Below, piece by piece: positions 2,801 to 64,000 of a DNA stretch of 64,000 nucleotides. The translations under genes were made by a program, and so were the position numbers. The notes under the pieces were generated by a model that was given only the letters and a program-made list of their open reading frames with translations, did not search any database and had not been told where the DNA came from. The stretch comes from a phage. Numbering within the stretch: the stretch's first letter is position 1; the number at the start of each line of letters is the position of its first letter. Location of the stretch: assembly GCA_036611895.1 (NCBI GenBank), contig GCA_036611895.1_4766.1. One strand, 5' to 3'.

Positions 2801-3238
2801 TTAACTACGTTTAAGGCCAGCGAACAGTGAAGGCTTAGTAGCAGGTTTCTCTGCTGGTTCTTCGGCCTTAACCTCTTCCTGCACAACTTCTTCTTGTGCT
2901 TCTGGTTCAGCTACTGCTTCTTCAGGATCCGGCGTAGAACTCTCGTTCTGACCACCAGTAGAGGTCTGGGTTTCTTCTACCTTTACCTCTTCAACAGCTT
3001 CTTCCGGCTCTGGTTCTACCGGACGGTGTTTAGCTTCTTGAGGATTCTTACGAGAACGGCGAGTTTTCTTCTCTACTCCCACGGGTGGAGTGTCTTCGTG
3101 AACCTCTTCGTTAATACCAACGGAGGCAGTACCATCTGCATTGATGACAATATTAATGTCACCAGCAAGATTGATTTGATCATCAACATAAGCCTGTACA
3201 GCAGCTTCTACTTCGGACTGGTTCAAAATGATTTGCAT
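2801..3238 (-). CDS. hypothetical acidic protein
   Basis: 145-aa ORF with a strongly acidic, Glu/Pro-rich C-terminal half; 1-nt gap to the next gene. Confidence 0.5.
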   Translation of the reverse strand: MQIILNQSEVEAAVQAYVDDQINLAGDINIVINADGTASVGINEEVHEDTPPVGVEKKTRRSRKNPQEAKHRPVEPEPEEAVEEVKVEETQTSTGGQNESSTPDPEEAVAEPEAQEEVVQEEVKAEEPAEKPATKPSLFAGLKRS

Positions 3239-3239
3239 A

Positions 3240-3794
3240 TTACGCCTTTAATAACTTAATAAGGTTCTGGAAAGCTGGTAGATTTACGCCAGCATGGATT
3301 GCACCGATTGCATCAGCTAAGTGCTCATTCTTATTCAGAAGTTTGCCCTTCTTATCGGTGAGCCAGTTGGCTTCAGGATAGATGGCATGAGCAGCACGAA
3401 TCATCGTGTCTTTGGATGCAGTTTTATCACCGACCAGTGCAAGTTTGTTTTCAATTGGGGATACTTCAAAGATTGGACAACCCAATGCACGAAATGCACC
3501 GATTAATCCTACGCATACACCATAGGATTTCATACCGTTAGCAGACTGAGAGCCTACTGGTACTTCTACGAATACTGCTTTAGCAGATCGTAACCATTCC
3601 TCACAACCAAGAAACAAATCGTAAGCGGCTTGTATATCTTTGGAGTTGGTTCGAACTTGTTTGTTGTGGTCAACTTCAGTTTGAACCAGTTTAAGTTCGA
3701 CCTGCTCGAAGACGCCGGACTCAATGTCCAGCATCCCACGAGCTAAACCCCAATTGCGGAGACTAATGTCTGCACCAACAATTGGGATTTTCAT
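3240..3794 (-). CDS. RuvC-like Holliday junction resolvase
   Basis: N-terminal IVGADIS, mid VFVEVP and C-terminal EHLADAIGAIHAG resemble the RuvC catalytic D, E and HxADA motifs. Confidence 0.55.
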   Translation of the reverse strand: MKIPIVGADISLRNWGLARGMLDIESGVFEQVELKLVQTEVDHNKQVRTNSKDIQAAYDLFLGCEEWLRSAKAVFVEVPVGSQSANGMKSYGVCVGLIGAFRALGCPIFEVSPIENKLALVGDKTASKDTMIRAAHAIYPEANWLTDKKGKLLNKNEHLADAIGAIHAGVNLPAFQNLIKLLKA

Positions 3795-27555: not shown

Positions 27556-27585
27556 AAAAAAAGACCTCCCTTCAATAGGGAGGTC
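27556..27585 (-). terminator. rho-independent terminator
   Basis: Plus strand AAAAAAAGACCTCCC-TTCAATA-GGGAGGTC; minus sense stem followed by T7. Confidence 0.6.
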
Positions 27586-27635: not shown

Positions 27636-28469
27636 TTATTCTGCAACAGTAACAGGGATGGTTACATCGACAGTACCATTGGTAACTACTACAGAAGTAG
27701 CATCACCAGCAGCAACTGGTTTAACCGTCAGTACGTTACCAGCAATGGTAGCTGTAGCACGACCGGATTCTGGAGCAGTCTTGATAGACAAAGTACCGAC
27801 AGATGAGCCAACAGGCATAGCAACAATCGTTACGTTCTTACCATCAGTAGTATCAGCAGCAACAGACAGAGCCAGTGAAGCTGGAGTAGCTACCAATGAG
27901 CTTGCTTCGTAGTAGCCTACAGCCAGCAGCGACTCATCTTCTACAGTGGTTCCATTAGCATCGGTAACAATCACTTTGTAAGTACCAGCAGAAGCAGCTG
28001 TTACGCCATTAAGAGACAATGTTGCAGTAGCAGCGGATTCATTCTCACCTGAATCAATATCAGCGAATGCTGCACCAGCAGTATTAGTTTTGAATTGCCA
28101 TTTATAAGTAAATGGTGCTTTACCACCTGCTACATCAACATGCCAGTTAATATCCTCACCTTCGATAGCAGAGACTACACGAGGCAGTTTGGTAGCAATA
28201 GTCAGTCGTGGAGTAGCCTTCATCTCAATAGAGATAGCCTGCATATCCACGATGTTGTTAGGCCAGAAGCCTTCTTCAGCAGGGTTTTTGGCAGAGCGTT
28301 TATACAGCAGATCACGAACACCATGAAAGATAACTAAGCTATCTGGATAAGTGGCATCTGGATGTACAAAGGTTCCTACTTCTACGGAACCACCTGGGAT
28401 AGAGCCATTGGCATCCAGTACAGTTGCAACATTAGTGGTTTTGTTAAAACCTACTTTTAAAGTTGGCAT
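27636..28469 (-). CDS. Ig-like domain protein
   Basis: Thr/Ala/Val-rich beta-strand-like repeats (KVIVTDANGTTV, VTIPVTVAE); start moved to the ATG at 28469, which has a GAGGAAA RBS. Confidence 0.5.
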   Translation of the reverse strand: MPTLKVGFNKTTNVATVLDANGSIPGGSVEVGTFVHPDATYPDSLVIFHGVRDLLYKRSAKNPAEEGFWPNNIVDMQAISIEMKATPRLTIATKLPRVVSAIEGEDINWHVDVAGGKAPFTYKWQFKTNTAGAAFADIDSGENESAATATLSLNGVTAASAGTYKVIVTDANGTTVEDESLLAVGYYEASSLVATPASLALSVAADTTDGKNVTIVAMPVGSSVGTLSIKTAPESGRATATIAGNVLTVKPVAAGDATSVVVTNGTVDVTIPVTVAE

Positions 28470-28525
28470 ATCAATTTCCTCATAAGTAAATAGCAGAGTT
28501 AGTATACATGACAGATAAAAAAATA

Positions 28526-28545
28526 AACCCTCCGTTAAGAGGGTT
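28526..28545 (-). terminator. rho-independent terminator overlapping a stop codon
   Basis: Plus strand AAAAATAAACCCTC-CGTTAA-GAGGGTT. Confidence 0.5.
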
Positions 28546-28759
28546 AGTTGTTTACACAGTAGATAGCAAAAGCTATCCATCCTGCTATTACAAAGCAGCC
28601 TAGTGAGTATGCTCCATAGTAGTAATAAGCAAACTTAGACTTGTGGGCATGGACTATCGTAGACAGAACCAGTACAGATAAAACTATCAGTATTAGCTGA
28701 AAGATTACTTCAAAAGGGATTAGCATAGTTGTTACCTCCAAGCAAAAAATATGCCTCAC
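28544..28759 (-). CDS. small membrane protein
   Basis: 71 aa with two hydrophobic helices. Confidence 0.4.
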   Translation of the reverse strand: MRHIFCLEVTTMLIPFEVIFQLILIVLSVLVLSTIVHAHKSKFAYYYYGAYSLGCFVIAGWIAFAIYCVNN

Positions 28760-28783
28760 TCCCGAAGGAATGAGGCTAGTTTA

Positions 28784-30001
28784 TTAACTTAATGCATAGT
28801 CTGTTTCAAGAATGTCCTGCCAGAGGCTGTCATCCAGCTTACCAGCAGAGAACTCTTGTCCCAGTACCTGAGACAGGATGAAGCCTAGCAGGTCACTCTT
28901 AGCAATGTCAGACAGAATCTGATTGTACTGACGACGTAGGTCATTACCGTAGTTAGGATGGCAACGGAAGCAGTCATGTACAGTCATTACAGGGAATGGT
29001 TTCTTAGGCATAGTGTCAATCATATCTGCTACTACCTGATGGTCTACATAAGCAATAGTGCATGGGTCAAGATAATCCAGGATTGATACGGATAGGAAGC
29101 CAGATTTCTCATAATGGCTCCACAGCTCCTGTACTTTCTCCAGATTGCCTGCAATCTCCCCATATTCTGATGGACCATCCTCACAGAGTTCTCGCACAGC
29201 TTCCACTAAGTCACGGTCGAAGTTACAACGACGCAGCATCTCACGCACCACCATCCCATCAATAGAGTGGGTGATGTTAGCAGAGAGCATACGAGTCTTC
29301 TCTTCTGTGCCCTGAACCATACGAGTGATGTCGAATGGCTTACCTAAGAAGTTAACAGTCTGTACTTCAGGAATCATGACCTTAATGACAGCGTGGAAGT
29401 TGTCAGGCAGTACCCATACGTAACGGTTGGCATCTGGATTACCACATTGCAGTAAGAACTTGTTAAGTGCCCAAGGACCACTAGCAACAGTTTCCATTAC
29501 ATTCTCAAAAGTCTTGAGACGAATACCTTCACCGAATACTTCTTTAGGCTTGGCTTCTGAGCCGTAGAATGCAGTCATAACTGCCTGCTTAGTGTCACTA
29601 CGTTTAATACGAGATGCTTCACCAAGGATGTCCAGCATCTTGTGATAGATAACTGTATAGGCATCACGACGTAATGGCTTACCATTCTCTCCCATGTAGT
29701 TAACTACGTTACACAGTTCAGCAGCAGAACGGTCACCAGTCAGGCAAGCCAGTAACTGCAATCCGGATGATGTAGCATCCAGGGCTACGGCATAACCAAT
29801 AGGCTTACCTGCTTTCATATCTTTCCATGCATTTATACCTGCAAAGAACAGAGCAGAATCTTCAGCTTCATCTACCAGATTAAGCAGGTTAGCTTCGTTC
29901 TCATCGAACCAGGAGATACGCTCATCCCATGTCTTTTTATCTAAGCCATAGTTATTAGCAATATCTACTTTCAGGTATTCACGAGCGGTTAACAGTTGCA
30001 T
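28784..30001 (-). CDS. T7-like single-subunit RNA polymerase, catalytic subunit (N4 RNAPII large-subunit-like)
   Basis: LDATSSGLQ resembles T7 RNAP motif A (DGSCSG) and VHDCF resembles motif C (HDSF); only about 405 aa, so a split polymerase. Confidence 0.65.
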   Translation of the reverse strand: MQLLTAREYLKVDIANNYGLDKKTWDERISWFDENEANLLNLVDEAEDSALFFAGINAWKDMKAGKPIGYAVALDATSSGLQLLACLTGDRSAAELCNVVNYMGENGKPLRRDAYTVIYHKMLDILGEASRIKRSDTKQAVMTAFYGSEAKPKEVFGEGIRLKTFENVMETVASGPWALNKFLLQCGNPDANRYVWVLPDNFHAVIKVMIPEVQTVNFLGKPFDITRMVQGTEEKTRMLSANITHSIDGMVVREMLRRCNFDRDLVEAVRELCEDGPSEYGEIAGNLEKVQELWSHYEKSGFLSVSILDYLDPCTIAYVDHQVVADMIDTMPKKPFPVMTVHDCFRCHPNYGNDLRRQYNQILSDIAKSDLLGFILSQVLGQEFSAGKLDDSLWQDILETDYALS

Positions 30002-30058
30002 TTTATGTTCCTTTTGCTTCTTGGCTCTCCACTATGGAGAGCCTGCTTATTGGATTTA

Positions 30059-30172
30059 TTTACGTTTACGTTTACGTTTGGCCTCTGCCTCACGTTTGAG
30101 AGCTTCGTTAATACGCTTTAACACTAGTTCTCTGTGAGCATAGAAGTCAGCTACTGCACGATGATTAATCAT
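30059..30172 (-). CDS. Lys/Arg-rich micro-protein (37 aa)
   Basis: ATG with AAGGAG RBS about 10 nt upstream; ends ...EAEAKRKRKRK; contains (ACGTTT)x3; below the track cutoff. Confidence 0.35.
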
Positions 30173-30983
30173 TGTTTACTAGCTCCTTATCAGCGAACTC
30201 CAGTACAGCTTTGTTGTAGCTGGTTCCCTGATAGTTGATGTGGTAGCCGCAGGCATATGTACGCCCACGTTTGTCATACTTGTGAGCCAGTGAGAAGTTA
30301 TTACCTTCTTTGGTTACTAACTCCATTACTTCCTTAGCTGTACGGCTGTACTTCTCAAAGGCTTTAACACGTTTCTCATAGTCCTGACGGGTTTCACCCT
30401 CTTTGGGTTTATCCATGTTAGGACGAGAGTCTTTTACATAGTTAGCAACGTCCCAGTTAATACAGAGACGTTGGTTATTCATACGGTTGATGTGGTCAAG
30501 ACAGACATCCATCTCATGATGGTTCTTCTTGAGGATGATGCTACCTCTGCTTTCATAGTAACCAGTATCACGATTACACAGAACAGGCTTAGGAGCACTT
30601 ACGATAGGCAATGGATACTGGAATGCTTCCAGTTCCATCTGAACATCTTCACTAATCTCATAGATAACACCGAACTTGTCGATGGTAGGGTCATAGTTGA
30701 AGCAGTCATTCTCTGCCATCTTATATAGGCAGTCAGCGATGTACTGAGCATCATCTGAGTGACTCATGAGAGAGCCAATCATAGTTTGGATGTCAGCACG
30801 TTTATGTAAGGCAATCTGCACCATTGCATCAATGAGCAGCTTATAATCAATTTCTAAATAGGCAGCGAATGCCTTAAAGTCAATTTCTTCGGAGTCCTCG
30901 AATTCCTTCCTCATGCGAGGGAGTAATTGATTCTTGTTGAAAAGGATTTCAAGTCGCTTCTGATGTTCAATAGATGAGTACAT
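30165..30983 (-). CDS. RNAPII small-subunit-like (N-terminal part of split T7-like RNAP)
   Basis: 272-aa ORF directly upstream of the catalytic subunit; assignment by synteny and size. Confidence 0.45.
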   Translation of the reverse strand: MYSSIEHQKRLEILFNKNQLLPRMRKEFEDSEEIDFKAFAAYLEIDYKLLIDAMVQIALHKRADIQTMIGSLMSHSDDAQYIADCLYKMAENDCFNYDPTIDKFGVIYEISEDVQMELEAFQYPLPIVSAPKPVLCNRDTGYYESRGSIILKKNHHEMDVCLDHINRMNNQRLCINWDVANYVKDSRPNMDKPKEGETRQDYEKRVKAFEKYSRTAKEVMELVTKEGNNFSLAHKYDKRGRTYACGYHINYQGTSYNKAVLEFADKELVNND

Positions 30984-31036
30984 CGCTTATTCTCCTAAAT
31001 ATGATTAATAACCAAAAGCTGCGGAGCAGCTATTAC

Positions 31037-31297
31037 CTAACGCTTAGTCCAAAAGGTAATACGAATACTGTTTTCATTACCGATGTAGTCGATGCGTACA
31101 TGCAGACCATTACCATTAAACTCATTACTTTTCTTCTGATAAGGCCAGACTAGGCTAGTCATAGGTATTTTGATGAAACCAGATATGTGGCCTAGCTTAG
31201 TACGACTCTTTAATTCATTTTGTAATGCACAATAGATGTCGTGCCGTGTGAGTGCTCTGGCTCTGACTTGAGCAGACCATAATTCTTCATATGTCAT
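31037..31297 (-). CDS. hypothetical protein
   Basis: 86-aa ORF. Confidence 0.4.
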   Translation of the reverse strand: MTYEELWSAQVRARALTRHDIYCALQNELKSRTKLGHISGFIKIPMTSLVWPYQKKSNEFNGNGLHVRIDYIGNENSIRITFWTKR

Positions 31298-31677
31298 GAG
31301 AAGGTTCCCCAGTAGATATAATCATCTCCCAGAATGGGCTTCCAGGCTTCGTCAAACATGACATTGCCAGTAGCATTGGCAAACATAGGAGCGATTTCTT
31401 CATCCTTATAGCCAGCTAATCCACAACCAATACGTGTTACTTTAAAGTCCCACTCTGGATGTGCTGCTGCATACAGGATAAATGCTTCAACGAATGTTTT
31501 AATGTCTTCTAAGGACATAGTCTTTATTGACTGGTCTTTGGTTGGAATTGCATAGCTGCAACCATAATGGCCTACGCCCATACCCCAACGAGCACCATGC
31601 TTTTTATATGCAACTTTCGCTGCACCAGCACCGTGACGACCTGCTAAATTACTTCCGAATACAAAGACTTCTTTCAC
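31294..31677 (-). CDS. Rossmann-like (SLOG/DprA-like) small protein
   Basis: FVFGSNLAGRHGAGAAKVA glycine-rich loop. Confidence 0.35.
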   Translation of the reverse strand: MKEVFVFGSNLAGRHGAGAAKVAYKKHGARWGMGVGHYGCSYAIPTKDQSIKTMSLEDIKTFVEAFILYAAAHPEWDFKVTRIGCGLAGYKDEEIAPMFANATGNVMFDEAWKPILGDDYIYWGTFS

Positions 31678-31871
31678 ACTAACCCCCTTACTTCTTTATA
31701 GAATTTAACAGCGTCTTCCTGAGTTTCAGGCTTAACTTCATAAACATAGTCAAGAGCTTGTTCGTGGTCTTTCTGTTCCTTCTTGGTTCTACAATGACCA
31801 CATTTACCATCCCATTGGGATACATGGCCTTTACCACATTTGCATTGTTTATTCATTAGGATTCTCCACAA
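31674..31871 (-). CDS. zinc-ribbon micro-protein
   Basis: CKCGKGH...CGHC; 65 aa. Confidence 0.4.
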   Translation of the reverse strand: MWRILMNKQCKCGKGHVSQWDGKCGHCRTKKEQKDHEQALDYVYEVKPETQEDAVKFYKEVRGLV

Positions 31872-32229
31872 AATAGTTATATATAGCCTTTACTAGCTTC
31901 TCTTTAATAACCTCACCATGACAAGGTTTTGGATAACAGAAGCACTGTAAGGCCAATCCTTTCTCGTCAATGGCTTTATTACCAAGACGATTAAGTTCAT
32001 CCAGTACAACTGGATTCTTTCTCATGATTTGTTCATTAAGCCATACTCGATACTTGGCTATAACCTGTTCTCTCGAACCGTCTTTACCAATGACAAATGG
32101 ATTGCCTAATGGTGAGCCACGCCCAATATACTCACCGGATTTACTGTGATGTTTATTAACAATAGTAATTGATCGTGCAGTTACACCCATTAGAGTATCT
32201 GTGTTATTACCTATTGAAATAGTCTTCAT
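31849..32229 (-). CDS. DUF4326-like protein
   Basis: GRGSPLGNPF and CFCYPKPCHG motifs as recalled for this family. Confidence 0.4.
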   Translation of the reverse strand: MKTISIGNNTDTLMGVTARSITIVNKHHSKSGEYIGRGSPLGNPFVIGKDGSREQVIAKYRVWLNEQIMRKNPVVLDELNRLGNKAIDEKGLALQCFCYPKPCHGEVIKEKLVKAIYNYFVENPNE

Positions 32230-32791: not shown

Positions 32792-33148
32792 TTAGTACCT
32801 TACAACATATACGGGTTTATTAAGCCTATTCATGATATCAATCATGTGCTTGGTTCCTTTGGAATTACCATCCCAGAAGCACACAGCAGCATCTGCAAAT
32901 TCACCCATTTCTTTATTCCTACGGAATCCAGCAGATTTGCCATAGGTATCCCATTCAGCAGGGAATACATGTATCTGCATATTTGCAGATTTCCATAGAT
33001 GGAAAGCTAATATATCTGCTCCACGAGCCATACCACATACCAATTCTGGGCATTCCGGTATATTCCCTGAATTTACTAACTTCTGTAATTCCTCAATCAT
33101 ACGATTGGTATTTACGAAGTCTCTCCCACCAGCTACAATCAGTCTCAT
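32792..33148 (-). CDS. SLOG/DprA-like Rossmann-fold protein
   Basis: VAGGRDF...GMARGADILAFHLW...DGNSKGTKHMI resembles the DprA/SLOG nucleotide-binding pattern. Confidence 0.45.
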   Translation of the reverse strand: MRLIVAGGRDFVNTNRMIEELQKLVNSGNIPECPELVCGMARGADILAFHLWKSANMQIHVFPAEWDTYGKSAGFRRNKEMGEFADAAVCFWDGNSKGTKHMIDIMNRLNKPVYVVRY

Positions 33149-34967: not shown

Positions 34968-34996
34968 TAAAAATAAAAGACTCCCCGAAGGGAGTC
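34968..34996 (-). terminator. rho-independent terminator
   Basis: Plus strand AAAAATAAAAGACTCCC-CGAA-GGGAGTCT. Confidence 0.6.
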
Positions 34997-35006
34997 TATT
35001 GGTTGA

Positions 35007-35480
35007 TTAGAAAGTCAGTTTACGAGCATATTTATTCTCGTCTGCTGGGATGTCAGCAGCCTCTGCTTTCACACGACGAAGTTGAACTTGCAGGTTAATG
35101 ATACCTTCTTCACCTGGTTCCAGGTTCTGAGCATATGCGATTAACTGTTCCAGCAAGTCGTTCTGTGCACAACGCATAGCACGGAAGTCAGCATTGCTGC
35201 TATTGGTAGGCAGCGGTTCCTGAGTATCCAGTGGAATACCAGTAGGCAGTGAGATGAATTTCTCATCATCAGAGCCTTCATTAGCCACATAACCAATGTT
35301 CAGCCAGAACTGAGCTTTTGGTTTGTCAGTTTTAGCAGTAGAAGCAGTATCGTTAGACTGACCGAAAGTGAATTTTTGAATAGACATTTTGTACTCTCCA
35401 GATTTATGTGATTTACGGGTGAACTCGTCGGTGAGAACACCCAAACAAAAGGATAAAAGTTCAATGATTAGTGGATGCAT
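35007..35480 (-). CDS. hypothetical protein
   Basis: 157-aa ORF; real start probably the internal Met of MSIQKFTF. Confidence 0.4.
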
Positions 35481-36265: not shown

Positions 36266-36295
36266 TCAAAACAGGAGACTCCGAAGAGTCTCCTT
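36266..36295 (-). terminator. rho-independent terminator
   Basis: Plus strand CAAAACAGGAGACTC-CGAA-GAGTCTCCT; 9-bp stem then a T-rich tail in minus sense. Confidence 0.5.
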
Positions 36296-36301
36296 GATGA
36301 C

Positions 36302-36625
36302 TTAGTCTTTAGTCAGGATGTCAATTACTTTGGAATATTCTGCGTTATAGATCCGAGCGTTCTCTGAATCCTTGCAGAATTCCTCGATACTTTTCTTACG
36401 CAGAGTCTCAGTCATAGCTGTTTCCTCTGCCAGTTTATTAACAAAGGTATGCATTTCTAATTTAGTACGAATGGCTTGTTTCTCTGCCATAGTACTAACA
36501 TATGAATTAAGCATACCTACTGCTTTAGTTGCTGTGCTGAATGTATCTGCAACAGTAGTAGCAGCTGAGTTAACAGTACCAAGTAAAGTTCCTGCGGTCA
36601 TACGTACAGTAGCTTGAGTAGTCAT
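36302..36625 (-). CDS. hypothetical protein
   Basis: 107-aa ORF with GGAG RBS. Confidence 0.45.
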   Translation of the reverse strand: MTTQATVRMTAGTLLGTVNSAATTVADTFSTATKAVGMLNSYVSTMAEKQAIRTKLEMHTFVNKLAEETAMTETLRKKSIEEFCKDSENARIYNAEYSKVIDILTKD

Positions 36626-61079: not shown

Positions 61080-61140
61080 ACATTCACTTACTGTACAGTG
61101 AATCTTCTTATACGATATAAGTTTGAACAGGAATCATGCT

Positions 61141-64000
61141 ATGTCAACATTTGACCGTCTGGCAGGTTTCGCAGACAGCATCACTACTGCTAAGCAAGTC
61201 GATGTCTCTACTGCAACCTCTCGGAAACAAGCTGAACAAGGGCAAAGCCCTTTCCAATTAACTCCTCAGAATGCCTACCAATTACAGGCAGGACGTGCCG
61301 GTGACTTAGGTGCTGGTGCATTTGAACCAGGTTCTATTCAGGCAGATTTTACTAATGCCTCCCCCCTTGAAATCGTAAACAAGTATGGCAATGAGCAAGG
61401 AATGGACATTCTCAATGCTCGTGTCAATGCAGCTAATTCTGTTCGTCGTGATTTAACTAAGAGTCGTACTTATGGTGAAGCACTTGGTGATACCCTTTCT
61501 GGTGTTGGTCTTGGTGTTGCTAATACCCTTGGGGGCATTGCTGCTCTTGGCACAGGTTTGGTCAATGATAATGCCGGGGCAACCATTGCTTCCAGTCTTG
61601 ACTGGTTGAATAAAGGTGTACACAACCTACAGTCTGATGCACTGAATGCTCGCCGTAATGTAGTACAGAACCAGAACGTAATATCTGCACAGGAAAATGA
61701 GAAACAGTATAAGCAGGATATTGCTGAAGGAGAAAGTGAACTCGTTGCTTCCTTGTCTCGCATTGGTCGTGATGCTTACGATTCTGTCGCTAACACTTTG
61801 TCTAATGGCATGGCTGCTACAGATGGTCTGGCTGAGGGTGTTGGTTCACTGTTTACTGGTGGTCCACTTATCCGTGGTGTATCTGCACTAGGTAAGGTAA
61901 TGGTAGGTGGTGATAAAGCTGTTAAGGGCATTACCTTAGCTGCTGAATTAGGTTCACGTCCTGCACGAATTGCACAGTCTGCTGGTCGTGTTGCTGCACC
62001 TGCTATAGCAATTGGTGGTATGGAAGCTGGTGGTGCATACCAACAGACTGCTAATGAAATTATGGAAATGCCATTCAGTGAACTGGCTGCTAAATCTCCT
62101 GTATACCAACAGCATATTAAAGACGGTTTATCTACTGAAGAAGCACGACGTCAGACTGCATCTGAAACAGGTATCACTGCTGCTGGTTTAACTGCTCCAG
62201 TTGCTGCTCTTACTGCTCCACTGGTATCCAAGTTTGAACTTAATCCACTTAAGGTAGGTTCACTGGCTGGTGCTGGTTCTAACATGCTGCGAGAGACTGT
62301 AGAAGAAGGTATTCAGTCTGGTACAAGTCAGTTTGCACAGAACAAGGCAATCCAAGGTAATGTTGATGCATCTCGTGACATCCTCAAAGGTGTAGGCGAA
62401 CAAACTGGTCTTGGTGCATTGTATGGCTTTGGTTCTGCTGGAGTTGCTCAAGCTCCTGGTGCAACTGTTAAGGCTGCTGGTGCTGCCGTTGGTCCTGCTG
62501 TACGTACTACCCTGGCTGGTGCTTCTCTGGCTGGTAAGGCATTAGCAAAAGTAGCTTCTCCTATTACTAACATCCTGGTTCAACGTGGGGAAGAAGTTGC
62601 TAAGCGTAATGAACAAGCATCCCCTGTATCTGATGCTACGGTTAACGCTGCTGCACAGGAAGCTACTGCTCAGGCAGAACAAGCACAAGCAACTGTACAG
62701 GAAGCAGTAGATGCAATGGATATTTCTCCAGAAGAGAAAGCTGCTGCTACTCAGTATGCTGCTGACTTAACTCAGGTAATGAAGTTTGATCCAGTAGAAC
62801 TGGAACAAGCTAGTCCAGTAGTCCGTGAAGCTGTTTCTGGTTCCACTAACCGTGTTGAAGCTATTCAGAAGATGGCTGACCTGGTTAATACTGCTGAAGA
62901 CCCTAACGTTCAAATGGAAGCTGCAATCCAGATGTATGACAACATTATGTCTATGGATAGCTTCATTAACCGTGATCCAGGTGCATTAGCTAATCTGGAA
63001 CAGGGTTCTCCTGCTGCTAATATTGTTGATCAGTTCTCCGGTCTGATGGCTAATGTACAGAATACACCGAAGGTACTCCGTGCATTCCGTGCCATTCATT
63101 CCATGATTCAGGAACAGGCAGAAGCAGGTAAACTGAAAGCTACTGAAGAAGCTAACCAAGCCCAAGCAAACAACATTGCTATGGCTGCTGATATGTCTCC
63201 AGAAGTGCTGGACGCAGATTCAGTGAACATGGTTCTGAAACATGCAAGTGAAGGTAAGATTACATTGGGGAATCGTCAGCGTGCTGCCCTGCAATCTGCT
63301 GCTGCTCTATTGCAAGGAGCACGGGAATTTGACGCTAAAGCAGAAGAACTAGGCTTACGTCCTCAAGACATTGTTAGTAAACAGATTAAAACCGACGAAT
63401 CTCGTTCTAATGAAGGTCAGTACTCTGCGTTGCAACATGCTAAACGCATTCGTTCTGCGTACAACTCTGGTAACTTCGATTTGGCTTCCGCTTATCTCGA
63501 CGACTTTATGAAGTTCGCCCAGCACATGCAGAATAAGGTCGGAGCGTTGAATGAGCATCTGATTTCTGGGAATGCGGATAAGAATAAGTCTGTCCATTAT
63601 CAGGCTCTTACTCCCTCGCGTGAATGGGTACGTAGTCGTACTGGCCTCGGTGTCAATCCGTATGATACCAAGTCTGTTAAGTTTGCCCAACAAGTAGGAC
63701 TGGAAGCCAAGACCGTAGCTGATATTGCTAACGCACTTGCTACGGCTTACCCGGAGCTTAATGTTTCTCATGTGAAAGTTACCCCATTGGATTCACGTCT
63801 GGACAAGCCTGCTGCCCAGGTAGTTAAAGAGTTCCGTCAGGGCAATCTTGATGCTGCTCAATCCCAACAGACCAATGAACCAGTGAATCAGGTTGATGAA
63901 ACTCCTGTTACAAAACAGGAACCAGTTACCCCTACTGTACAGACTAAACCCTCTGTTAGTGAAGCTGTTAAAACAGAACCCACTATTAAAGAGTCTAAAC
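61141..64000 (+). CDS. giant virion protein, 5' part only (candidate virion RNA polymerase)
   Basis: Frame opening at ATG 61141 stays open by manual translation through the window end (more than 950 codons); Ala/Gly/Gln-rich; N4-like position after the internal virion proteins. Confidence 0.45.
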   Translation, partial: MSTFDRLAGFADSITTAKQVDVSTATSRKQAEQGQSPFQLTPQNAYQLQAGRAGDLGAGAFEPGSIQADFTNASPLEIVNKYGNEQGMDILNARVNAANSVRRDLTKSRTYGEALGDTLSGVGLGVANTLGGIAALGTGLVNDNAGATIASSLDWLNKGVHNLQSDALNARRNVVQNQNVISAQENEKQYKQDIAEGESELVASLSRIGRDAYDSVANTLSNGMAATDGLAEGVGSLFTGGPLIRGVSALGKVMVGGDKAVKGITLAAELGSRPARIAQSAGRVAAPAIAIGGMEAGGAYQQTANEIMEMPFSELAAKSPVYQQHIKDGLSTEEARRQTASETGITAAGLTAPVAALTAPLVSKFELNPLKVGSLAGAGSNMLRETVEEGIQSGTSQFAQNKAIQGNVDASRDILKGVGEQTGLGALYGFGSAGVAQAPGATVKAAGAAVGPAVRTTLAGASLAGKALAKVASPITNILVQRGEEVAKRNEQASPVSDATVNAAAQEATAQAEQAQATVQEAVDAMDISPEEKAAATQYAADLTQVMKFDPVELEQASPVVREAVSGSTNRVEAIQKMADLVNTAEDPNVQMEAAIQMYDNIMSMDSFINRDPGALANLEQGSPAANIVDQFSGLMANVQNTPKVLRAFRAIHSMIQEQAEAGKLKATEEANQAQANNIAMAADMSPEVLDADSVNMVLKHASEGKITLGNRQRAALQSAAALLQGAREFDAKAEELGLRPQDIVSKQIKTDESRSNEGQYSALQHAKRIRSAYNSGNFDLASAYLDDFMKFAQHMQNKVGALNEHLISGNADKNKSVHYQALTPSREWVRSRTGLGVNPYDTKSVKFAQQVGLEAKTVADIANALATAYPELNVSHVKVTPLDSRLDKPAAQVVKEFRQGNLDAAQSQQTNEPVNQVDETPVTKQEPVTPTVQTKPSVSEAVKTEPTIKESK

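Follow-up and report, generated by a model that had tools for sequence, protein, structure and literature searches.

An N4-type heterodimeric RNA polymerase II in a Gamaleyavirus genome, with a small selected gene between its two subunit genes

Introduction

The RNA polymerase II (RNAPII) of bacteriophage N4 has been known since 2002 as a heterodimer of the gene products gp15 and gp16, and its crystal structure exists. The structure was reportedly published by Molodtsov and Murakami in 2018. According to biochemical and genetic work on N4, gp15 and gp16 act together with gp1 and gp2 (PMC4496689), the latter being a cofactor that binds single-stranded DNA (ssDNA) and recruits RNAPII to the middle promoters (PMC4496689). 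A heterodimeric N4-like RNAPII is also present in the Pseudomonas phage LUZ7, where it is recruited by a small ssDNA-binding cofactor, Drc, which stands in place of gp2; the LUZ7 subunits share only 36% and 31% identity with their N4 counterparts (PMC7145618). A variable spacer between the two RNAPII genes has already been described as the 'G7C-type' arrangement (Amgarten et al., 2017, PMC5418858).

Here, we analyse this region in a stretch of phage DNA of 64,000 nucleotides (hereafter the window). The window comes from a coliphage of the Gamaleyavirus genus (G7C-like, Schitoviridae), and its DNA is 91-96% identical to that of phages St11Ph5, Bp4, and CU10EC. An earlier note, made by reading the sequence, had proposed that two adjacent open reading frames (ORFs) encode a split T7-like RNA polymerase, that this enzyme is the N4-type middle polymerase RNAPII, and that a micro-ORF lying between them may code for an accessory factor.

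Results

The two subunit genes lie on the minus strand. The upstream ORF (30165-30983, 272 aa plus stop) is the orthologue of N4 gp15, or RNAP1, and the downstream one (28784-30001, 405 aa plus stop) is the orthologue of N4 gp16, or RNAP2, the large, catalytic subunit; RNAP1 and RNAP2 are the names of the corresponding genes in annotated Gamaleyavirus genomes whose DNA is 91-96% identical to the window. The small subunit matched chain A of the N4 structure over residues 3-269 (6DT7_A, E = 1e-117), and the large subunit matched chain B end to end (6DT7_B, residues 1-405, E = 8e-188). Identity to the N4 proteins is 65% for the small ORF with gp15 and 67% for the large ORF with gp16, which agrees with the assignment to RNAPII made in the earlier note. 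The 272-aa ORF also matched PHROG 2166 (E = 3.6e-116), and the 405-aa ORF matched both PHROG 2051 (E = 4e-175) and the Pfam family RNA_pol (PF00940; 51.4 bits, cut-off 22; E = 1e-13). Judging from these similarities, which greatly exceed chance, the two ORFs encode both subunits, small and large, of an N4-type heterodimeric RNAPII, each a full-length orthologue of one chain of the N4 heterodimer, and nothing was found against this assignment.

The gene pair is flanked by two terminator-like signals on the same strand. Upstream of the small-subunit start is a hairpin followed by a T-run (31017-31031). Starting 8 nt past the large-subunit stop is an intrinsic-terminator-like hairpin (28753-28776) with a 10-bp stem, six GC pairs, and a T-run (tail ATATTTTTTG); phage Jura carries an annotated terminator in the corresponding position behind RNAP2. 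The latter hairpin probably marks the end of the transcription unit.

Comparison with T7 RNA polymerase (pairwise BLASTP, together with local alignment of the motifs) places the two chains one after the other along a single T7-like protein. As the earlier note had supposed, the upstream ORF provides the N-terminal part: it covers T7 residues 270-455 (E = 2e-4), whereas the large ORF covers residues 459-598 (E = 3e-5) and 810-883, and so bears the expected similarity to the palm and fingers of single-subunit polymerases. The large subunit alone did not reach T7 RNA polymerase in a phmmer search against the PDB. The same order was recovered with PHROG 414, a full-length RNA polymerase profile of 816 positions (228-424 for the small ORF and 429-596 for the large one), and the joined subunit proteins gave one-piece tblastn matches across the junction to single-chain cyanophage polymerases, such as that of Cyanophage 9515-10a (joined query 109-535).

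All catalytic motifs that were aligned to T7 are intact. In the small subunit, the T/DxxGR motif reads DKRGR (residue 237), and the large subunit carries motif B (TKQAVMTAFYGS, with K138 and Y146). The readings of LDATSSGLQ as motif A and of VHDCF as motif C were both borne out, these motifs starting at residues 74 and 341 of the large subunit, with D75 and D343 corresponding to T7 D537 and D812. The small subunit contributes the thumb with the T/DxxGR motif and an N-terminal domain of reduced length, and the large subunit the palm and fingers with motifs A, B, and C; both chains together rebuild one T7-like fold, cut at a point equivalent to T7 455/459.

Each ORF covers only a part of T7 RNA polymerase, and the 405-aa ORF is by itself indeed too short for a single-subunit enzyme. 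That neither ORF could alone make a T7-like polymerase is also what would be expected of a broken single-chain gene, resulting from a frameshift, a sequencing error, or the decay of a pseudogene. However, what lies between the two genes is not a frameshift but 166 nt containing a further gene under selection, and each of the two has a start codon and a ribosome binding site of its own. Moreover, both are under purifying selection (dN/dS of 0.04 and 0.19), and the identical split is found in N4, whose heterodimer has been crystallised, and in hundreds of N4-like records. Given this conserved split and the solved structure of the heterodimer, we reject a broken gene as exceedingly improbable.

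The window also holds the other components known from N4. A homologue of gp2, the ssDNA-binding RNAPII cofactor, is encoded at 35007-35480 on the minus strand (tblastn, 67% over 161 aa, E = 2e-73; PHROG 4099), and a homologue of the second cofactor, gp1, lies on the same strand within the tblastn match limits 36314-36625 (66% over 104 aa, E = 7e-44; PHROG 5020). On the plus strand, an open frame running off the window end (61102-64000) encodes the N-terminal 966 aa of a giant virion RNA polymerase like N4 gp50; it matched positions 5-865 of the 3406 in the profile PHROG 2206, named 'virion RNA polymerase' (E = 8e-248).

On the model of the orthologous N4 system, the virion polymerase would be injected and would transcribe the early region, including gp1, gp2, and both RNAPII genes; the two RNAPII subunits would then assemble, and gp2, aided by gp1, would bring the enzyme to AT-rich middle promoters, from which it would transcribe the middle (replication) genes. 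Heterodimer formation, timing, and cofactor dependence in the window phage are suggested by the 65-67% identity to the N4 proteins; the heterodimer, rifampicin-resistant ssDNA-templated RNA synthesis, and the need for the enzyme in middle transcription are known for N4 only (PMC4496689).

The gap of 166 nt between the subunit genes contains a micro-ORF and a 9-bp hairpin. The micro-ORF (30056-30172, minus strand) encodes 38 aa plus a stop (MINHRAVADFYAHRELVLKRINEALKREAEAKRKRKRK). The earlier note had located it correctly and described it as rich in Lys and Arg, with sense codons at 30059-30172, but had counted 37 of these where there are 38; the stop codon occupies 30056-30058. Its ATG (30172) shares bases with the stop codon that ends the 272-aa ORF (ATGATTAA). 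The proposed AAGGAG ribosome binding site is present on the minus strand at 30183-30188, 10 nt upstream of the ATG, where this Shine-Dalgarno-like site falls inside the final codons of the gene for the small subunit (…D K E L V…). At the equivalent place N4, whose gap is free of ORFs, carries AAAGAAG.

The hairpin (30023-30043) is a perfect 9-bp stem with a 3-nt loop (GGCTCTCCA-nnn-TGGAGAGCC), lying between the micro-ORF stop and the ribosome binding site of the large subunit (AAGGA, 30009-30013, minus strand). RNA folding gave -17.2 kcal/mol (z = -4.5), and none of 200 shuffled sequences was as stable. It sits within a block of 54 nt, just upstream of the large subunit, over which most Gamaleyavirus records share 94-100% identity, and it is missing from E20, F22, and contig L011. 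On the coding strand, the hairpin is not followed by a U-tract. It is a candidate partial terminator, or an element of RNA processing or stability.

Since it is under strong purifying selection, the micro-ORF is, by its pattern of substitutions, a real gene encoding a real peptide. In its own frame, dN/dS is 0.043 against E20, 0.066 against L011, and 0.025 against CU10EC, as compared with 1.4-4.4 in the two same-strand frames starting one or two bases later. Seventeen changes are synonymous and nine non-synonymous (binomial p of about 1e-6), and synonymous sites are near saturation (pS = 0.72, pN = 0.10). AlphaFold2 gave a helix over residues 4-37 (pLDDT 91.7), and the peptide is thus predicted to form one basic alpha-helix with a Lys/Arg tail. 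It belongs to no Pfam or PHROG family, its lone match (FAM165, E = 0.58) being noise.

The overlap of the micro-ORF start with the small-subunit stop, together with the position of its own stop 54 nt before the large-subunit start, might suggest a mere translated spacer that relays ribosomes toward the large-subunit gene and whose peptide has no function. This is very unlikely: a pure relay would not need the conservation of amino acids observed here while synonymous sites are nearly saturated. In addition, a stable hairpin stands between the micro-ORF stop and the ribosome binding site of the large subunit, and relatives with an empty gap of 58-59 nt do without the micro-ORF altogether.

The distribution of the micro-ORF is strikingly narrow. 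It was found by tblastn in only three of 50,697 phage records; together with the IMG/VR and metagenome collections, which were searched with degenerate DNA patterns, this gives only five other distinct sequences, with the micro-ORF always between the subunit genes. The carriers are CU10EC, E20, F22, one IMG/VR contig, which the metagenome scan picked up again, and another two metagenome contigs. In every carrier, a copy of the small-subunit 3' end directly precedes the micro-ORF, even when an HNH gene is inserted upstream; in L011, this copy keeps an AAGGAA ahead of the micro-ORF. Conversely, the micro-ORF is missing from N4, whose gap of 47 nt has no ORF, and from most Gamaleyaviruses with 91-99% identical RNAPII.

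The gap itself is highly polymorphic, with at least nine length classes in 38 relatives that share an RNAPII identity of 90% or more. Close relatives have nothing there, or unrelated small ORFs (in some of them a 53-aa ORF, as in St11Ph5), or homing genes of the HNH or endonuclease VII type. By this distribution, the micro-ORF is a sporadic occupant of the gap and one among several alternatives.

Two further origins were considered and rejected. A remnant of a homing endonuclease finds no visible likeness, in a side-by-side, unaligned reading, to the HNH proteins of Mimir124 and Jura, the endonuclease VII of pSb-1, or the 53-aa ORF of St11Ph5; furthermore, tblastn matches are confined to three phage records, and in L011 the micro-ORF is intact beside an HNH gene. 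Nor can the micro-ORF be the lost linker of an ancestral single-chain polymerase, because the T7 alignment leaves just about three residues unaccounted for at the 455/459 junction.

The earlier suggestion of an accessory factor did not hold as a general feature, the micro-ORF being present in few genomes and absent from N4, and the gap fillers being variable. Conservation wherever the polymerase is conserved, as expected of such a factor, was not observed. A required part of the polymerase, or a required accessory factor, is unlikely because the micro-ORF is rare, N4 RNAPII works without it, and the gap contents vary.

A lineage-specific accessory factor, modulator, or third partner of RNAPII is a narrower proposal. 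The Lys/Arg tail of the peptide might bind either nucleic acid or an acidic, variable segment in the large subunit (residues 255-330, 16 D/E against 6 K/R); the peptide might in this way tether RNAPII to DNA/RNA or to that segment, and translational coupling could allow the peptide to be made in step with the subunits. Consistent with this, the micro-ORF is a genuine gene subject to purifying selection, lies between the subunit genes in all six carriers (the window and five others) and directly behind a small-subunit 3' end copy, even with HNH upstream; the predicted single helix with its basic tail, the fixed position, and the overlap of the ATG with the small-subunit stop leave room for a polymerase-related role. 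Yet N4 has no micro-ORF, and its RNAPII is genetically, biochemically, and structurally gp15 and gp16, acting with gp1 and gp2. Most Gamaleyaviruses with 91-99% identical RNAPII have unrelated ORFs, a homing endonuclease, or nothing in this place. Furthermore, the peptide matches no Pfam or PHROG family, and both alleles of the large subunit's variable segment are found among the micro-ORF carriers. We therefore give such a role only a small chance, and the evidence favours an unrelated cargo gene.

Discussion

Taken as a whole, it is highly probable that the locus encodes the heterodimeric RNAPII of a Gamaleyavirus and that the micro-ORF is most likely a non-required occupant of the gap. The polymerase finding is confirmed as correct but ordinary and already known: dozens of near-identical phages have annotated RNAPII genes, so that the significance is slight beyond correct annotation, and the variable, endonuclease-prone spacer between the subunit genes has likewise been published. 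The small new point is that the 38-codon spacer ORF, labelled 'hypothetical' in three phages, is now seen to be strongly selected. If the peptide were indeed a modulator, the enzyme of this small clade would effectively have three components, and a peptide acting on the polymerase would offer a handy minimal system for asking why the polymerase is split.

Among known systems, T7 RNA polymerase (883 aa) belongs to the same family and is collinear with the window enzyme, sharing the T/DxxGR motif, motifs A, B, and C, and, at its C-terminus, the DILExD(F/Y)A tail. In contrast, it is one chain whose N-terminal domain is complete and which needs no cofactor, whereas the window enzyme is divided over two chains (677 aa in total) and would, like its N4 orthologue, depend on gp1 and gp2. 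LUZ7 differs in having no gp2, of which the window has a clear homologue.

The G7C-type arrangement resembles that of the window in that unrelated genes space the subunits, and G7C is congeneric (Gamaleyavirus) with 91% protein identity. Its gap of 587 nt, however, holds an HNH homing endonuclease, while the window has only the 38-codon ORF, a rare allele.

Also among the close counterparts is the RNAPII of N4 (gp15 and gp16; PDB 6DT7, 6DT8, and 6DTA). Its genes are also adjacent, encode about 270 and about 404 aa, and lie just before the gene for the Hoc-like gp17, and the split point, the motifs, and the gp1 and gp2 cofactor genes are common to N4 and the window. As for differences, the large subunit diverges strongly from gp16 at residues of about 260-330 (37-57% identity per block of 30 columns), and the subunit genes are separated by 47 nt without an ORF in N4, as opposed to 166 nt with the 38-codon gene and the 9-bp hairpin in the window.

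The two subunits of the middle RNA polymerase

The gene pair is the already known N4-type RNAPII, the two-subunit T7-like middle RNA polymerase of N4-like phages, carried here by a G7C-like phage. The three ORFs listed in the earlier note are all present on the minus strand: a small-subunit ORF of 272 aa (30165..30983), a micro-ORF (30056..30172) and a large-subunit ORF of 405 aa (28784..30001). The micro-ORF had been given 37 codons, but encodes 38 aa plus a stop; its ATG at 30172 overlaps the small-subunit stop codon (ATGATTAA), and the AAGGAG ribosome-binding site (RBS) ascribed to it was found at 30188-30183, 10 nt 5' of this ATG. A separate AAGGA precedes the ATG of the large ORF by 7 nt, and the gap between the subunit genes is 166 nt.

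The 405-aa protein matched Pfam RNA_pol (PF00940; 51.4 bits, cut-off 22), PHROG 2051 'RNA polymerase' over its full length (E = 4e-175) and, over nearly its whole length, chain B of PDB 6DT7 (RNAP2, E = 8e-188). The 272-aa protein matched PHROG 2166 'N4-like RNA polymerase' (E = 3.6e-116) and, again nearly throughout, chain A of the same structure (RNAP1, E = 1e-117); both also matched PDB 6DT8 and 6DTA. Chains B and A are gp16 and gp15 of phage N4, to which the large and small subunits are 67% and 65% identical (tblastn with the N4 proteins), bearing out the proposal of an N4-type middle polymerase.

The sequence comparisons also show that the two ORFs together make up a single T7-like polymerase split in two, as had been proposed. 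On PHROG 414, an 816-position profile of the full-length RNAP, the small protein falls at 228-424 and the large one at 429-596. In BLASTP, they matched consecutive segments of T7 RNAP (270-455 and 459-883): small-subunit residues 126-272 aligned with 270-455 (E = 2e-4), and large-subunit residues 9-143 and 341-405 with 459-598 (E = 3e-5) and 810-883, the last reaching the C-terminal DILExD(Y/F)A tail, so that the 405-aa protein resembles the palm and fingers of single-subunit RNAPs. Moreover, the joined subunits matched single-chain cyanophage RNAPs unbroken over the junction (tblastn), with residues 109-535 of the joined query covered in one piece by the RNAP of Cyanophage 9515-10a.

Counterparts of the T7 catalytic motifs were placed by local alignment. 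DKRGRTYA in the small subunit corresponds to T7 DWRGRVYA (T/DxxGR, 421-425), and RSDTKQAVMTAFYGS in the large subunit to T7 RSVTKRSVMTLAYGS (motif B, K631 and Y639). The earlier assignment of LDATSSGLQ to motif A and VHDCF to motif C was right, because these alignments pair them (large-subunit residues 74 and 341) with T7 FDGSCSGIQ (D537) and IHDSF (D812), respectively.

Just before motif C, large-subunit residues ~255-330 (29012-29240) form a hypervariable, acidic segment (16 D/E versus 6 K/R). It is 47-73% identical to that of phage E20, whereas all other 30-column blocks of the subunit are 90-100% identical, and its allele varies among otherwise near-identical phages. By its position, this segment would match the T7 specificity-loop region.

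The gap between the subunit genes

The micro-ORF matches no Pfam or PHROG family. Of 50,697 phage records, only those of CU10EC (36 aa), E20 and F22 (38 aa each) contain it; a degenerate DNA pattern recovered one IMG/VR contig (L011) and three stretches of the metagenome collection, one of them (L014) the same contig. All these occurrences lie between the two subunit genes. Compared with E20, the micro-ORF shows 17 synonymous and nine non-synonymous changes (pS 0.72, pN 0.10, dN/dS 0.043; binomial p ~1e-6 for the synonymous excess), and dN/dS is 0.066 against L011 and 0.025 against CU10EC, while same-strand frames beginning 1 or 2 bases later give ratios above 1. Single-sequence AlphaFold2 predicts one helix (residues 4-37, pLDDT 91.7). 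Judged by this substitution pattern, the micro-ORF is evidently a real gene. At synonymous sites it has diverged about twice as far (0.72) as the subunit genes on either side (0.33-0.34), which fits a history of exchange at the gap site.

The earlier note had also suggested that the micro-ORF product may be an accessory factor of RNAPII. This is unlikely given what occupies the gap elsewhere: 47 nt and no ORF in N4, an unrelated 53-aa ORF in St11Ph5 and many others, an HNH homing endonuclease in Mimir124, Jura, G7C and others, and endonuclease VII in Shigella phage pSb-1. The micro-ORF is thus no conserved component of the polymerase. Across 38 distinct Gamaleyavirus genomes with RNAPII at least 90% identical, gap lengths derived from match spans were 58-59 nt (two genomes), 160 (one), 200-211 (15), 292-294 (six), 441 (two), 470 (two), 550-555 (five), 587 (four) and 669-671 nt (two). 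Such variability is already published: Amgarten et al. (2017; PMC5418858) defined the 'G7C-type' arrangement, reported zero to eight spacer genes, and proposed that an ancestral gene was split by homing-endonuclease insertion.

In L011 (1424-2116), the end of the small-subunit gene is followed by an HNH gene, then by 63 nt that duplicate the final 21 small-subunit codons (95% protein identity), and then by the micro-ORF. It follows that the endonuclease gene, inserted upstream of a micro-ORF that was already there, carried its own replacement copy of the small-subunit gene end, the footprint of a homing-type insertion. In pSb-1 (L006, 2063-3279), the annotation divides the large-subunit gene into two ORFs that overlap (2063-2857 and 2824-3279), a frameshift that is due to a sequencing error or marks an additional split; such cases are mentioned in the N4 review (PMC4496689).

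Hairpins and promoters

Terminator-like hairpins with T-runs lie upstream of the gene pair (31031-31017) and directly after the large-subunit stop codon (28776-28753). Within 28400-31400, terminator-like hairpins are in excess (9 versus 1.5 ± 1.2 in shuffles) and sigma-70-like sites scarce (1 versus 6.8 ± 2.6), which fits genes read by phage polymerases, not by the host enzyme.

The interval from the micro-ORF stop to the RBS of the large-subunit gene holds a further hairpin (30023-30043; RNA fold -17.2 kcal/mol, z -4.5), which has a perfect 9-bp stem and a 3-nt loop; the coding strand carries no U-tract there. Most Gamaleyaviruses share the 54-nt block holding it at 94-100% identity; a single A-to-G change in CU10EC would leave a U·G pair in RNA, and E20, F22, L011 and N4 (AGCC-AATA-GGCT) have differing, shorter sequences. 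Similar G+C-rich 9-11 bp hairpins occur at 27563-27585, 34975-35000 and 36273-36294, just 3' of the early/middle genes for Hoc-like gp17, gp2 and gp1, respectively. Their placement points to a series of terminators or RNA-end elements punctuating the early region.

Genome context and comparison with N4

Gene order in the window is a permutation of the N4 map, the virion RNAP gene exiting at the right end. From ~38.5 kb, early and middle genes run leftward on the minus strand; late genes run rightward from ~39.5 kb, and GC skew switches sign near 36-40 kb. Upstream of the polymerase genes are small conserved early genes for a gp14-like protein (31294-31677; ADP-ribosylglycohydrolase in the Mimir124 annotation), a DUF4326 protein (gp12-like; 31849-32229) and a 118-aa ORF (MRLIVAGGRDF…; 32792-33148).

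The RNAPII region shares 91-96% DNA identity with many phages of Escherichia and Shigella in the genus Gamaleyavirus (Schitoviridae, Enquatrovirinae), including St11Ph5, Bp4, ECBP1, CU10EC and G7C, and the subunit genes of these relatives are already annotated RNAP1/RNAP2 or gp15/gp16. Homologues of the N4 RNAPII cofactors gp1 (36314-36625) and gp2 (35007-35480) were found by tblastn on the minus strand. On the plus strand, an open frame that runs off the right end (61102-64000) encodes the giant virion RNAP, of which the N-terminal portion is present (PHROG 2206, E = 8e-248). In N4, early genes, including those of RNAPII and its cofactors, are transcribed by the virion RNAP that is injected; the heterodimer of gp15 and gp16 by itself transcribes only ssDNA, nonspecifically, and gp2, an ssDNA-binding protein, takes RNAPII to AT-rich middle promoters with the help of gp1 (Lenneman and Rothman-Denes, 2015; PMC4496689). 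From the 65-67% identity and the presence of all four genes, we infer the same mechanism in this phage: as in N4, the virion RNAP would carry out early transcription, including the RNAPII and cofactor genes, the two subunits would form a heterodimer like gp15/gp16, and the gp2 and gp1 homologues would recruit it to AT-rich middle promoters.
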